Of a stretch of 64,000 bases of DNA, positions 24,172 to 44,157 are shown one piece after another. Position 1 is the stretch's first letter. The number at the start of each line of letters is the position of its first letter. A program made the translations under genes and the position numbers. The notes below the pieces were generated by a model, which made no database searches, had not been told where the DNA came from, and was given only the letters and a program-made list of their open reading frames with translations. Source of the DNA: Gammaproteobacteria bacterium (lineage in GTDB: Bacteria; Pseudomonadota; Gammaproteobacteria; CBDBNL01; JAAOII01); contig OZ242372.1 in NCBI GenBank assembly GCA_965209035.1, forward strand, positions 384,001-448,000. The letters are read 5' to 3'.

Positions 24172-24415
24172 TGCATAATCTCAAAAAGGCTTTGAACTCT
24201 GAGTTGGGCATTGTGCGTCCTCAGATCAAAGACCAAGTACCGGAGGTTCTGTCGGGCAGGACGAAGAGAGATCCGGCAAGCGGCTCAAGGTATGTGAAGA
24301 TAGATTAATGAAGCGGGCAAAATGGAATGTGAACTGCTCCAATCTTTACGGTGCGAGCTACGGAGGCATGTTGTTGAAAAACTGTCGCGGTGCTTCCGCT
24401 GGCGAGACAGTGTGG
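24172..24415 (+). mobile_element. Diverged copy of the IS481 left end plus leader (no transposase)
   Basis: Colinear with 25890-26130 (CTGAG...GTGCGTCCTCAGATC, CCGGAGGTTCTGTCGG, TCCGCTGGCGAGAC). Confidence 0.85.
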
Positions 24416-24545
24416 GGGGAATTGTATATCATTCCCTAAAATCATTAAGTTGAAGATCCGATTTTTTGAACGAGTACCTAAAAAATCCGAGGCATCGCCC
24501 GCCCCGTTGACTGTTTGGATATAGGCAGTCTTTTATAAGGTGTGA

Positions 24546-24571
24546 ATTCAAGTAACTAGTGCAACACCTTG
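24546..24571 (+). repeat. 26-bp inverted repeat, left copy, flanking the R-M cassette
   Basis: ATTCAAGTAACTAGTGCAACACCTTG; one mismatch to the reverse complement of 27470-27495. Confidence 0.85.
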
Positions 24572-24679
24572 AAAGGTTTCCTTGAATTTTGTAGAATTCA
24601 AGGGAATGCACTAATCACTTAAATCTTGGGTGCGTTTAAGAAAGTAGCAGTTAGAGATCCCCGCGGAAGCCGAGATCAT

Positions 24680-25126
24680 TCATAAGATTCTTTTAAGCCA
24701 TTTTATTGCGCGTTTAAGAATGGTAATGTCGTCATCCATCATCCCCATGCTTGAATTACATTGCCGGCAGACCCATCCTCTTATCTCACCGGTCTTATGG
24801 TCGTGATCTATCACGACATCATTTGTATATTGACGAGTGATCGTTTTCCGGCACACCGGACAATAAAATTTTTCGCCAATTGCCGGGCGAGGATGCTGCT
24901 GTTCGTATTCTGTCTTTCTCTTTCTTGATATCGGTTTTTTTATTTTTCGACATTCTATACAATCACCTCGGCGAGATATTCTGCCACTGACAGTTCTTTA
25001 ATTTTTTTGAAATGCAAAAAGAGATTTCCTTTTTTGACAAAGTCGACAGATTTTTGTTTTTCCCAAACAGTCCGCACAGTATTTTTCTGCCGCCTTGTTC
25101 GTTCCGCATTCTATGCATTTGTTCAT
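24680..25126 (-). pseudogene. Hpy99I-like His-Me (EndoVII-type) restriction endonuclease with an internal TAA
   Basis: Manual translation: MNKCIECG...KICRLCQKRKSLFAFQKN*RTVSGRISRRGDCIECRK...FYCPVCRK...VVIDHDHKTGEIRGWVCRQCNSSMG...IKWLKRIL. The stop is at 24998-25000 (codon 43). Confidence 0.8.
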
Positions 25127-25889
25127 TTGTTCTCGCGAGTTCCGGTTTTACAATACTTCGCAATGTTTTAAAGTGTTTCAAAATGTTTCACAATACGGCG
25201 GAAATCGGGATGGGTATTCTTTTTTGTTCTTCTTTAAATATTTCTCGTAATCGTTTATTGGCAATTGCAGCATACGGTTCATATATTTCACTTCCGACAA
25301 AATTGCGGCCGGTTAACATTGCCATCTTGGCGGTGGTTCCGCTTCCCATAAAGGGGTCGTACACAATCTCACCCGCATTGCTCCAAGACAAGATATGATC
25401 TTTTGCCAACTCTTCCGGAAATATTGCGGGATGACCGTATGCAATAGAATCACTGGCAGAATGACCCTTACCGATGTTATATTGCCACACATTGGTGCGC
25501 CTCCCTGTCTTGTCATATCCCTTTCTAATCACCTGTTTCAATTCCCCGCCAAATAATCTTTTATTACTAACATCGCCATCTCGGCTGTCTTTATTTTCTC
25601 GGTCTCTTATAAGATTAATTGTTTTGGGTTTCCCTTTAGAAAGGACGAACATATACTCAAAACTTTGCCAGTATGTCCGATTGTCCCCGCAAGCACCGCG
25701 CGGCGGCTTAAGGTAAATCATCGTATCAAAGAGATTAAATCCTACCCGCTTAAAATACAAAGCCTGGCGAAAAGAAGTTCCGCTTTCATCCCCCTCTTTT
25801 GTTTGATCATTGACTATCCAAACCAGGACACCGCCCAATTTCAAGACGCGATGCAATTCCTTTGCAATTGATGTGAATTGTGAAAAAGT

Positions 25890-27188
25890 TGCATGATCTC
25901 ATAAAGGTTCTGGACTCTGAGTTTGGTATTGTGCGTCCTCAGATCAAGCGTCCGGAGGTTCTGTCGGACGGGTCGAAAATAGATCCGGCAACGGGTCTTC
26001 GGTATGTGGAGCTAGATGAATGAAACGGGCAAGAAGGACGGATAGCTGTTTTGCTCTCACCGCCGCAGACAGCGGAGGCTTGTTGTTGATAAAACTGTCT
26101 AGGTGTATCCGCTGGCGAGACGGTATGGTTTGTGAGGGCAGCCGGACTGCACATTGGAAATGAGAGGAACACGTTTACGCTACATTGGTTATCGCGTGCG
26201 CGGTTTCAATAAAATGGTGGTTTTAGCAAATCAATATTTAAACATGTCTAAAACCACCAAAATAAAACTGGACACCTTGGCGTTCGCGCGCAAACATGGT
26301 GTCGCGGCCGCGTTGGATCATACCAGGATCAGTCGTGCTACATTCTACGAGTGGCAGCGGCGTTTCCGTGAAGGCGGGGTCGATGAACTGGCGAACAACT
26401 ATGGGTATCAGCCCAAGCGGTCCAACACCTGGCCACCGGCACTGATTACCAAGATCCGGTCTTGGCGACAACAGCGTCCGAACATCGGTGCCGGTAAACT
26501 GGTCTGCTTGTTACCCGAATGGTGTCAGCAGCGCGGGCTGCCGCTGCCCAGCCAATCAACGCTCTCTCGCATCATTGCCGATGACCCGGATAAGATGCGG
26601 TGCAAACCATCGCGGTCCGTGCCGAAACGCCCGCGGCATGGTGCTCCGCGCGAGCGCAAGGACACCCGCTTTGTTGCGGGCCGGAGAGGTGAATGTGTTG
26701 CCTTTGATACGCTCGTCCGCATCGTCGATGGCCGGCGCTTTTATTGGCATGTCGGCATTGACCTATTTTCCCGCTTCTCACTGGTCAGTGTCGACACCTC
26801 CGCTGCTTCGGCCAGTTCCGCCCGGCTCTTTACCGCCATGCAAAACATACTCGGCACTCGGATCGAAAAAGTCCTCACCGATAATGGCAGTGAGTTCGCC
26901 AAAGACTTTCACCGGGTCGTGACCGCAAACGGCAGCACCCACTGGTATACCTATCCAAGGAAACCGCAAATGAATGCACACTGCGAACGGTTTAATCGCA
27001 CTCTCTGGGAAGAGTTCGGTTGTCATATGCGGCATCTCTTGGTTAAGGATATGCCGGCATTCAACGCCAAACTCATCGAGTGGTTGGCTTGGTATAATCT
27101 GGAACGTCCCCATTATGCTCTCAAACAACTCTCGCCAATCCAGTTTTTGCAAAAACAACAAAAGTCCAGAAATGGGTGGGATCATACA
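25890..27188 (+). mobile_element. Complete IS481-family insertion sequence, 1299 bp, 5-bp TSD AAAGT
   Basis: Ends TGCATGATCTCATAAAGGTTCTGGACT and AGTCCAGAAATGGGTGGGATCATACA form an imperfect IR; AAAGT at 25885-25889 and 27189-27193. Confidence 0.92.
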
Positions 27189-27224
27189 AAAGTGTTCCCA
27201 GAATACTTCCTTATGTTATCATAG
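26160..27224 (+). CDS. IS481-family DDE transposase
   Basis: HTH (ISRATFYEWQRRF), AFDT, TDNGSEF, PQMNAHCERFNRT and YNLERPH motifs; the ORF runs through the right IR. Confidence 0.93.
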   Translation: MRGTRLRYIGYRVRGFNKMVVLANQYLNMSKTTKIKLDTLAFARKHGVAAALDHTRISRATFYEWQRRFREGGVDELANNYGYQPKRSNTWPPALITKIRSWRQQRPNIGAGKLVCLLPEWCQQRGLPLPSQSTLSRIIADDPDKMRCKPSRSVPKRPRHGAPRERKDTRFVAGRRGECVAFDTLVRIVDGRRFYWHVGIDLFSRFSLVSVDTSAASASSARLFTAMQNILGTRIEKVLTDNGSEFAKDFHRVVTANGSTHWYTYPRKPQMNAHCERFNRTLWEEFGCHMRHLLVKDMPAFNAKLIEWLAWYNLERPHYALKQLSPIQFLQKQQKSRNGWDHTKVFPEYFLMLS

Positions 27225-27469
27225 GGCGGTGAGGTGATCATCATATCAATGGAACTTGTTTCAAACCGTTGCATTGTCTTAAGGCAATCTTCGTTATAAA
27301 TGTGATTAATTTTCATTGTTTGATCTTCCAATACTTCTACCATACAAACATATTACCTTAATTTTGTAGTTCTAAAATTTTAACGCCAAACGCATTAATA
27401 GGCAGGGAATTATAATCCGCTGAATTGGACAAAATTCAATGGGGCTATTTATAAGGTTTATAAGGCTTA

Positions 27470-27495
27470 CAAGGCGTTGCACTAGTTACTTGAAT
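27470..27495 (-). repeat. 26-bp inverted repeat, right copy
   Basis: CAAGGCGTTGCACTAGTTACTTGAAT. Confidence 0.85.
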
Positions 27496-27546
27496 CCATA
27501 TATCTAATCAATATATCAATATTTAAATACTGTTAGAATCTAAAAA

Positions 27547-27619
27547 CGTCCCCTAGGGGATTCGAACCCCTGTTGCCGCCGTGAAAGGGCGAAGTCCTGG
27601 GCCTCTAGACGAAGGGGAC
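27547..27619 (-). tRNA. tRNA-Glu(TTC), no encoded CCA
   Basis: GTCCCCTTCGTCTAGAGGCCCAGGAC...CT-TTC-AC...GGTTCGAATCCCCTAGGGGACG. Confidence 0.96.
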
Positions 27620-33938: not shown

Positions 33939-33973
33939 TATTATAAGTCACGAATTGTATAGCCACGCCCATT

Positions 33974-34010
33974 TGCATGATCCCACCCAGTTCCGGACTC
34001 TTGTTGTTTT
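33974..34010 (-). mobile_element. Isolated IS481 right-end remnant
   Basis: TGCATGATCCCACCCAGTTCCGGACTCTTGTTGTTTT closely matches the reverse complement of the IS right end. Confidence 0.8.
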
Positions 34011-34099
34011 AATACAACGGGCCTGTCGCAAGGTTTTTTACAGAATGGTCGTATAATAAAACACAGTATCTGTTCTTTTGAATGAAGGTACTTTATTTA
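34004..34099 (+). promoter_or_regulatory. 96-bp direct repeat copy 1, containing a putative sigma70 -10 box (TATAAT)
   Basis: Identical to 36001-36096. Confidence 0.85.
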
Positions 34100-35782: not shown

Positions 35783-36000
35783 GAAAGAGTTCATAAGTCT
35801 GTATCATCACTGCTCGCTCATATACACGACCAGTTCCCAAGAAACGTACTTTGTAAAAAGTATCTCGTAGCGATACCTTAAAGGTAGTGCTTTGTAAAAC
35901 AGCAATTCTCAATGAATCGCATCATGCGACCAAAACACTCACTCCAACAACACTCGTCCTTTAATAGGAACTAATAGGAACACAAATACACACTTATTTC

Positions 36001-36096
36001 TTGTTTTAATACAACGGGCCTGTCGCAAGGTTTTTTACAGAATGGTCGTATAATAAAACACAGTATCTGTTCTTTTGAATGAAGGTACTTTATTTA
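36001..36096 (+). promoter_or_regulatory. 96-bp direct repeat copy 2; promoter of the ABC substrate-binding gene
   Basis: Identical to 34004-34099. Confidence 0.85.
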
Positions 36097-41554: not shown

Positions 41555-41908
41555 TGCATAGTCTCATAAAGGTTCCGGACTCTGAGTTTGGTATCGTGCG
41601 TCCTCAGATCCAGAAGCCGGAGGTTCTGTCGGACGGGTCGCAAATAGATCCGGCAACGGATCTCCGGTATGTGGAGCCGGATGAATGAAACGGGCAAAAA
41701 AGACGGATAGATGTTTTGCTCTTGCCGACGCAGACAGCGGAGGCTTATTGTTGATAAAACTGTCCGGGTGTATCCGCTGGCGAGACGGTGTGGTTTGTGA
41801 TGGCTGGCTTGGTATCATCTCGCGCGCCCCCATTATGTTCTCAAACAACTCTCGCCGATCCGGTTTTTGCAAAAACAACAAAAGTCCGGAAATGGGTGGG
41901 ATTATACA
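41555..41908 (+). mobile_element. Internally deleted non-autonomous IS481 derivative (full leader plus last ~100 bp)
   Basis: Colinear with 25890-26140, then jumps to 27080-27188 and ends in GGGATTATACA. Confidence 0.9.
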
Positions 41909-42071
41909 AATTACGCTTATTTATTTGTATAAAATTATGATTATTATCAATAATTTGATACATTTCGCTTATAATTGGAAGCAAATTAATTATTATGATG
42001 AAACTTTATAAGCAGGGATCACATGTTTTTTGTGTGCGCCTCATTTTTCTTTTTCAAAACAACAACTCATT

Positions 42072-43820: not shown

Positions 43821-43992
43821 TGCATAACATCAGCAAGGTTTTGAACCGGGAGTTTGATGGCATGCGTCCCAAATCCCGGAAAATTAAAGTTCTGCCGGCA
43901 GGCATTCAAAAGTCCCCATTACGCCTTTCAACAACTCTCTATATTGGTTTGGATAAAAATACAAAGAGTTAAAAAGTGAGCGGAACTATACA
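43821..43992 (+). mobile_element. Old degenerate MITE-like IS481 derivative (~170 bp)
   Basis: TGCATAACATCAGCAAGGTTTTGAACCGGGAGTTTG resembles the left end; GTCCCCATTACGCCTTTCAACAACTCTC...GGAACTATACA resembles the right end. Confidence 0.7.
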
Positions 43993-44063: not shown

Positions 44064-44157
44064 TGTATCATCGCGTCCGATTTTGGACTCTTTTCGCGAA
44101 CGCGCAATGAACACACAATGCCAAACTCAGAGTCCGGAACCTTTATGAGATCATGCA
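44064..44157 (-). mobile_element. 94-bp MITE-like IS481 derivative
   Basis: Minus strand reads TGCATGATCTCATAAAGGTTCCGGACTCTGAGTTTGG...GAGTCCAAAATCGGACGCGATGATACA. Confidence 0.8.

Follow-up and report, generated by a model that had tools for sequence, protein, structure and literature searches.

Insertion sequences (IS) of the IS481 family, among them IS481, IS1002 and ISCaa11 and ISCaa12 of Amoebophilus, carry one DDE (rve) transposase open reading frame (ORF) between short terminal repeats with TG..CA tips, have the tip signature TGT...ACA and leave a short target duplication. In the IS3 family (IS911, IS3, IS150) a short upstream ORF (OrfA) lies in another frame and overlaps, stop on start, the ORF for the DDE domain (OrfB); near the ends of other elements the transposase start site is sequestered, as in the 'fold-back inhibition' of IS10 and IS50 and by the 5′ hairpin of IS200. 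A 64,000-nt stretch of a gammaproteobacterial genome (assembly GCA_965209035.1, contig OZ242372.1, positions 384,001 to 448,000 of the forward strand; 'the window' below is this whole stretch) was analysed, and positions 25890–27188 (+) were found to be a full-length IS481-like insertion sequence of 1299 bp with 270 nt ahead of its transposase gene. These 270 nt hold two upstream ORFs (uORF1 and uORF2), linked to each other and to the transposase by stop and start codons. They are the 5′ leader of a high-copy IS; judged from the sequence, it is an even call that a translational relay bridges them. The repeat as such is real, but most of what it represents is commonplace, namely an abundant IS481-like element with the remnants it has left.

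The ends of the element were set by 20 aligned full copies and by an uninterrupted target paralogue (L100). The left terminal inverted repeat, read from the sequence, is TGCATGATCTCA (25890–25901, +) and the right one is TGGGATCATACA (27177–27188), an imperfect 12-nt repeat that matches the left at 10 of 12 positions; the left tip reads TGCATG and the right tip, as reverse complement, TGTATG, so that TGT stands at one end and TGC at the other. The IS splits an N6/N4 DNA-methylase gene (25188–27343, −), the C-terminal part of which ends at 25889 and the N-terminal part of which occupies 27189–27343, and it is flanked by the 5-bp target duplication AAAGT (left 25885–25889, right 27189–27193; strand not applicable). 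An intact methylase paralogue at G000:C1:1053148 carries a single AAAGT at the matching point, which fixes the boundaries. A contig crossing the 'empty site' was considered as an insertion polymorphism; this was rejected, since the intact paralogue in the same genome explains the contig.

The transposase ORF (26160–27188, +) has 343 codons and no stop codon inside the IS; it ends with TAG (27222–27224) in the flank. It is a single ORF that needs no frameshift; in 20/20 full copies its ATG stands at IS position 271 or 276, and from there (26160 in this copy) no stop interrupts it before the IS ends. Pfam domains rve, rve_3 and a helix-turn-helix (HTH) were found, and the best match was the NCBIfam IS481 model NF033577 (172.4 bits, E 1.4e-50; curated cut-off 224). 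The ATG at 26160 opens an in-frame extension of 28 residues with a GY..RGF block, which is conserved as protein in four lineages, and the leader was therefore taken to be 270 nt long. In its single DDE ORF, its TG..CA-tipped repeats and its short duplication the element resembles the IS481 family; it differs in its score of 172 bits, under the NCBI cut-off, in having all its non-coding DNA (270 nt) at the left end and in the missing internal stop. PMC10045372 gives target duplications of 2–15 bp, mostly 6, for the IS481 family (here 5 bp) and the tip signature TNT..AYA for eukaryotic relatives of IS481; PMC3196728 gives two IS481 elements, one of 1031 bp with a 314-aa transposase and one of 1210 bp with a 364-aa transposase, and so roughly 90–120 nt of non-coding DNA in total for each. 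The transposase ORF (26160–27224 in this copy) ends wherever the flank supplies a stop. At head-to-tail IS junctions the left repeat gives TAA or TGA in two frames, and a spacer of 1 or 4 nt would let the transposase ORF run into the uORF1 frame; junctions with spacers of 0, 1 and 5 nt are present in the genome.

The uORF1 frame (25889–26023, +) has 44 codons and is open from the IS tip to the TGA at 26021–26023; the other two frames are closed in the left repeat (TGA, TAA). The first-pass annotation, a model's reading of the letters alone, had started uORF1 at 25889. The frame is indeed open from the tip, but it has no start codon of its own there: the first letter of the 'TTG' lies outside the IS, which begins at 25890, and belongs to the target duplication. 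From copy to copy, any of the four bases can precede the tip. The ATG of uORF2 (26020–26163, +, 47 codons) overlaps the uORF1 stop as ATGA (26020–26023) in 20/20 full copies. The uORF2 stop overlaps the transposase ATG in the same way (26160–26163) in 13 copies and lies 1 nt before it (TGAAATG) in the other 7. The chain of uORF1, uORF2 and transposase with two ATGA overlaps, as first described, was thus confirmed, and in none of the 20 full copies is uORF1 (44 codons) or uORF2 (47 codons) broken. When the leader was shuffled with its dinucleotides kept, one coupled uORF of at least 30 codons arose in 456/5000 shuffles and a two-link chain in 39/5000. Of all features of the leader, only this chain departs from chance expectation, in a comparison made post hoc.

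The second link follows a hypervariable part of the leader. In the patch 26130–26159 the subfamilies differ by 10 substitutions and a 5-nt indel, as against about 3% divergence elsewhere, and the stop/start coupling is kept in both subfamilies across these changes in the 30 nt upstream. The alternative allele of the patch is also present in an old degenerate copy and is therefore an ancient polymorphism or a product of recombination. Like IS3 OrfA/OrfB, the arrangement places an overlapping upstream ORF before a DDE ORF, and the transposases are related (the IS3 family model scored 100 bits); it differs from OrfA/OrfB in that the HTH lies within the transposase and the two upstream ORFs have no recognisable domain. 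Inspection of the sequence at the two overlaps (26010–26030 and 26150–26170) found no slippery heptamer, neither a six-A run nor A-AAA-AAG. Among the papers listed by full-text literature searches, none dealt with an IS481 leader, with IS481 uORFs or with an IS481 RNA.

Next to the left repeat lies a hairpin (25916–25943, +) formed by TCTGAG, a 16-nt loop and CTCAGA; it has −8.1 kcal/mol and is weaker than the hairpin at the same place in relatives. Its loop holds ATT-GTG (25928–25933), and this in-frame ATT/GTG at 25928/25931 (IS positions 39–44), which reads ATG-GTG in the older subfamily, is the candidate internal start of uORF1. The space before the transposase, 45–46 nt in six relatives, has lengthened to 270 nt in this element and to 181 nt in a sister lineage. 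The relay would work as follows. The expanded leader would be bridged by translation and not by folded RNA. Ribosomes would start in or near the left-repeat hairpin, on ATT-GTG or, in the older subfamily, on ATG-GTG; alternatively, they would enter from outside the IS in the single frame that the tip leaves open. After reading uORF1 they would terminate on the ATGA that starts uORF2; after reading uORF2, whose peptide sequence would be unconstrained, they would terminate either directly on the transposase ATG or 1 nt ahead of it. Some of them would re-initiate, giving a low transposase output tied to upstream signals. The relay, if real, would be a documented case of an IS481-type transposase controlled by serial termination and re-initiation, and it would show an IS coping with leader expansion in a host that seldom uses Shine-Dalgarno motifs. 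Its relevance would lie in transposase control and in genome erosion in IS-rich bacteria; no new class of system is involved.

Relatives were compared for leader length. In six distant relatives (L066, L067, L068, L093, L031 and L092) the leader is 45–46 nt long, which makes the long leader a lineage-specific expansion. In these six a hairpin of −11 to −17.5 kcal/mol that starts within the inner left repeat encloses either the ribosome-binding motif or the start codon, and the transposase start lies inside or just after it. Start-site sequestration as in IS10, IS50 and IS200 is thus resembled by the six relatives and, with its weaker hairpin, by the present element; the difference here is that the transposase start is displaced downstream by about 220 nt and that the loop holds only the possible uORF1 start. 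The sister lineage (five dead copies in two genomes of the same bacterial family) has a leader of 181 nt, in which one frame runs without a stop from the tip, over 58 codons, and ends 2 nt ahead of the transposase ATG; shuffles reached at least 45 codons in 234/5000. The leader interior could not be aligned with confidence even to this lineage. An independent and unrelated leader of ~215 nt with a perfect 23-bp inverted repeat is found in L088 (genome G155) and suggests that leader expansion happened more than once in this group. In L091, L095 and L097 (genome G339) ATG-GTC/GCC-TGC-TGA stands directly after the left repeat, a three-codon ORF with its stop in the transposase frame, and is followed by a perfect 9-bp hairpin (GAAGCCGAC/GTCGGCTTC); in L090 the loop of this hairpin holds ATG.

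No close relative was found in any of the searches made. The best match had 39% identity in the scan of genome contigs (5 loci) and 43% in the scan of metagenome contigs (9 loci). Among 60 related genomes, 5/60 gave matches outside the element's own genome (best full-length ~39%, partial 44–46%), and among 400 genomes of the class, one of which was unscored, 6/399 outside its own genome gave matches (best 41%). Since no relative was close enough for the leader interior to be aligned, covariation and the comparison of non-synonymous with synonymous changes rest on the copies of one genome.

The left end of the element also occurs before another gene. A 78%-identical copy of IS positions 2–132 is present at G000:C1:260201–260331 (+), 2067231–2067361 (−) and 2068364–2068494 (−); it comprises the left repeat, the hairpin and the whole uORF1 frame and ends exactly at the uORF1 stop. 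Behind it come AAGGAGG and, 10 nt from the end of the copy, the start codon of a gene for a membrane or repeat protein of 287 residues. No Pfam family matches this protein; its gene exists as three near-identical copies, two of which form a tandem with a spacing of 1133 nt. The flank upstream of the three module copies is identical as well, pointing to one event that was later duplicated. It is conceivable, though we hold it rather doubtful on what can be read from the DNA, that a relay of two coupled uORFs in a 270-nt leader, replacing a hairpin leader of 45–46 nt, would gate the transposase and that positions 2–132 may serve as a portable expression leader.

The relay has several observations against it. 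The active subfamilies have no canonical uORF1 start inside the IS, and older copies break the uORF1 frame with insertions of 7, 17 and 27 nt. The ATG at 26244, which stands in an A/T-rich context, could be the transposase start that is really used. The chain statistic is post hoc, and this lineage and the sister lineage share ancestry and are not independent. A Shine-Dalgarno-like tetramer precedes the first ATG in 103/939 long ORFs of the host, compared with a background of 7%; such motifs being rarely used, little can be concluded from finding GGAG ahead of uORF2 and no such motif ahead of the transposase, and an argument for coupling from these motifs was dropped. A second sample that carries the same species label (DNA run X4, of low depth) yielded 45 reads at a cut-off of 95% likeness; with 95–99% likeness they cover the IS ends and the transposase body, and none falls in 25985–26269. 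The leader therefore evolves fast or is replaced there and belongs to the fastest-changing parts of the IS. The host transfer-messenger RNA tag was read as GEENSYALAA.

Another reading is that the leader is a functionless spacer, grown by slippage and duplication in the interval from left repeat to transposase start, with ORFs and overlaps that are by-products of its history and of a G-rich, stop-poor composition. We regard this as possible but somewhat unlikely. In its favour, the interior is not conserved between IS lineages, which have 45–46, 181, ~215 (unrelated) or 270 nt, and the older copies vary by a tandem 10-nt unit (GGCGGTTCGC-like), whose number at IS position ~65 differs and yields the 7-, 17- and 27-nt insertions (e.g. 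C1:1140600, 1371660 and 1494181). A 21-nt segment (IS positions 94–114) is absent in five copies (C1:1140600, 1250487, 1484673, 1494181 and the truncated C1:1240642), and a 2-nt deletion in the leader also occurs among older copies. The initial observation that the only indel of uORF1 was an in-frame one of 6 nt holds among the three copies in the window but not genome-wide. Among full copies the leader is as variable as the transposase gene (24/270 nt and 73/944 nt with substitutions, respectively), and dead copies lose it as quickly as other parts of the IS. Two antisense frames are open over 76–81 codons in all copies, and frame openness is therefore cheap in this composition. Against a mere spacer stand the rarity of a two-link chain in shuffled leaders, its retention in all intact copies across the hypervariable patch, and the sister-lineage leader, likewise spanned by one open frame ending just before the ATG.

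Codon-position tests were weak and speak against the relay as well as for a spacer. With minimum changes counted over 20 aligned sequences, codon positions 1, 2 and 3 of uORF1 had 25, 23 and 30 changes (30/78; p = 0.20), and the pattern was flat in the dead copies of the window (24172 copy 11, 7 and 7; 41555 copy 4, 5 and 4). The third positions of uORF1 coincide, moreover, with third positions of an open antisense frame. In uORF2 all 5 changes among full copies in 26020–26129 hit its second codon position, so that its peptide is not conserved. The translational-coupling cascade that had been put forward as one of two readings is compatible with the chain and its rarity in shuffles, and it is the favoured functional hypothesis for this lineage-specific and unusually long leader. 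The five variable sites 26036, 26039, 26063, 26117 and 26126 are all third positions of the transposase frame, which is closed there by TAG, TAG and TGA; with five sites this may be chance. Stop read-through in the transposase frame (26016–26160) was considered and rejected, as none of the 41 tRNAs is a suppressor and serS ends in TAG. An antisense ORF of 77 residues (26172–25939) had no family match, and the 5-nt indel of subfamily B falls in its N-terminal part.

That uORF1 encodes a small functional protein of about 30–44 residues, for example a regulator of transposition, is very unlikely. Among full copies, 7/10 variable sites in 25890–26019 are third positions of uORF1 (p = 0.02, uncorrected for frame choice; the transposase body has 32/73 at its own third position), the older and the active subfamily differ by three consecutive synonymous changes (CAG ATC AAG to CAA ATT AAA), the older subfamily has an in-frame ATG, and over 135 nt the 78% copy before the unrelated gene family preserves the frame with no gap. 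The third-position share is nevertheless 30/78 overall, 13/30 in the 78% copy, 7/25 in the 24172 copy and 4/13 in the 41555 copy, and wobble positions are common to the open antisense frame. The N-terminal half of uORF1 is conserved terminal-repeat DNA, identical at the DNA level in relatives; the active subfamilies have no canonical start; and in the five sister-lineage copies, read by eye, about 9 replacements are non-synonymous and 2 synonymous. Neither uORF1 nor uORF2 had a match in Pfam or NCBIfam. A peptide likeness between TGLRYVE (uORF1), SGLHYIE (sister lineage) and TRLRYIG (transposase N-terminus) was discarded as too short; the DNA alignment pairs the sister stretch with 26142–26160.

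The first-pass annotation had also proposed a structured non-coding RNA, acting in cis on the transposase or bound by it in a guide-like manner. Elements of the IS110/IS1111 group have a long non-coding stretch between the IS end and the recombinase gene, from which bridge or seek RNAs derive, and use a DEDD/serine-type recombinase; the present element resembles them in the position of the non-coding stretch only and differs in its DDE enzyme (rve core), in targets that are not conserved and in having no supported structure or covariation. No Rfam match was found within the leader. The 286-nt leader folded no better than dinucleotide shuffles (z = −0.41 sense, +0.35 antisense), and six sub-windows gave z from −1.73 to +0.89, five of them from −1.15 to +0.89. 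The lowest value, −1.73 for 25985–26092 (11/200 shuffles fold as well), contains the best thermodynamic candidate, a 16-bp helix of 25986–26001 with 26073–26088 around the uORF2 start. Changes at 25993, 25996 and 25999, all third positions, keep its pairing, which favours an RNA, but no pair of the helix is changed on both sides and 467/500 shuffles score as high.

Covariation was assessed on an alignment of 17 distinct copies of 76–100% identity, all from one genome, in which the power to detect it is low. The RNAalifold covariation term was +0.72, with changes on both sides in 2/48 pairs, and the three hairpins of the first annotation together with its 9-bp stem and two further helices scored 0.038, equal to the shuffled mean of 0.038 and reached by 252/500 shuffles. 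The hairpin arms CTGAG/CTCAG, CCGGA/TCCGG and CGGA/TCCG are present in all three window copies, as had been seen, but have no covariation in their support; pair 28–53 of the CTGAG/CTCAG stem is broken in 5/15 sequences without compensation within this genome, and these short arms of 4–6 nt are kept because the surrounding sequence is kept. The 9-bp stem described for the 24172 copy exists there, but its pairs 217–248 and 220–245 are each paired in one sequence only. A small hairpin within the hypervariable patch (GCAG-CCGGA-CTGC, 26138–26150, +) has the only pair in which both partners change, being A-U in 8 of the sequences and G-C and G-U in 2 each, and speaks for an RNA. Taken together, there is no support for a folded RNA in the leader, and such an RNA appears most improbable.

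The insertion sites contradict guide-like targeting, which is largely refuted. Perfect 5-bp target duplications flank 14/20 full copies (ATGAT twice, AAATC, AAAGT, AATTA, ATTTG, AATAG, TATGC, CCCAC, CCGCA, CCCTT, AACGC, GGATT and CTACA), and no common motif was found among these 14 unrelated duplicated sequences; the remaining 6/20 adjoin another IS copy or show unequal flanks. The first-pass annotation had named beforehand four outcomes that would speak against its reading, and three of these were found or nearly so: no covariation, a flat codon pattern in the window copies and equal decay of the leader and other dead IS DNA.

The decay of the element was followed through its copies. A 371-nt leader query gave 45 matches in the element's own 2.24-Mb genome, and the whole IS gave 133 high-scoring segment pairs (HSPs) by blastn, 20 full-length and 113 partial. 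In the window, the ~250–270-nt left-end sequence was confirmed at 24172, 25890 and 41555, the three places where the leader had first been noticed. It had been noted that two of these lack a transposase, and the leader had been described as outlasting the transposase. Only the 25890 copy does have a transposase; the 41555 copy, however, is not leader-only, since its leader part runs straight into the final 110 nt of the IS. The copy at 24172–24440 (+) is an old left-end fragment (IS positions 1–~245, lacking transposase and right end) with 76% identity over 246 nt by blastn and 72–88% by segment. The one at 41555–41910 (+) is an internal-deletion derivative, in which IS positions 1–250 are joined to 1192–1301; it is 90% identical over 250 nt of leader and has no target duplication, and thus no sign of movement after the deletion. 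Other internal deletions that keep both ends join positions 1–264 with 1207–1299 and 2–51 with 1255–1301. MITE-like elements (miniature inverted-repeat transposable elements) are non-autonomous internal-deletion derivatives of an IS; 41555–41910 and several other copies likewise keep both ends without the middle, the 41555 copy, as said, without a duplication.

Nothing indicates that the leader is retained preferentially. Coverage by partial HSPs per 100-nt bin drops smoothly from both tips (25.2, 11.4, 5.8, 2.3 ... 17.5, 59.2), the right tip is found in 68 partial HSPs genome-wide and the left tip in 33, and of the latter 33 fragments 20 break off short of position 90 and just 5 reach position 240 or beyond and so keep most of the leader. 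In five dead copies that retain leader sequence along with another part of the IS, divergence of the leader in most cases equals or exceeds that of the remainder (identities of leader and rest 77.3/86.0, 77.9/86.7, 76.2/85.7, 85.8/82.4 and 90.4/90.0%). Leaders that lack a transposase are either remnants anchored at an IS end or products of internal deletion, and the claim of a leader kept after loss of the transposase found no support. For practical purposes the outcome is chiefly negative, with no sign that the leader is an RNA guide or forms a conserved RNA family, and with normal IS decay to account for its occurrence without a transposase.

Smaller remnants lie elsewhere in the window. A left-tip fragment of 47 nt was found at 44111–44157 (−) and a right-tip fragment of 39 nt at 33972–34010 (−); at 43821–~43960, where blastn gave no match, the sequence resembles by eye a degenerate mini-derivative of a related IS. 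A 99-nt direct repeat (34001–34099 and 35998–36096, 99% identical, 1997 nt apart) starts within or beside the right-tip fragment. Around the full-length element, 33-nt inverted repeats at 24543–24575 and 27466–27498 (91% complementary; about 10 genome matches) flank a 2.9-kb module that contains an endonuclease-VII-like gene (24680–24856, −) and the IS-split methylase gene and that adjoins a tRNA gene (27547–27619, −).

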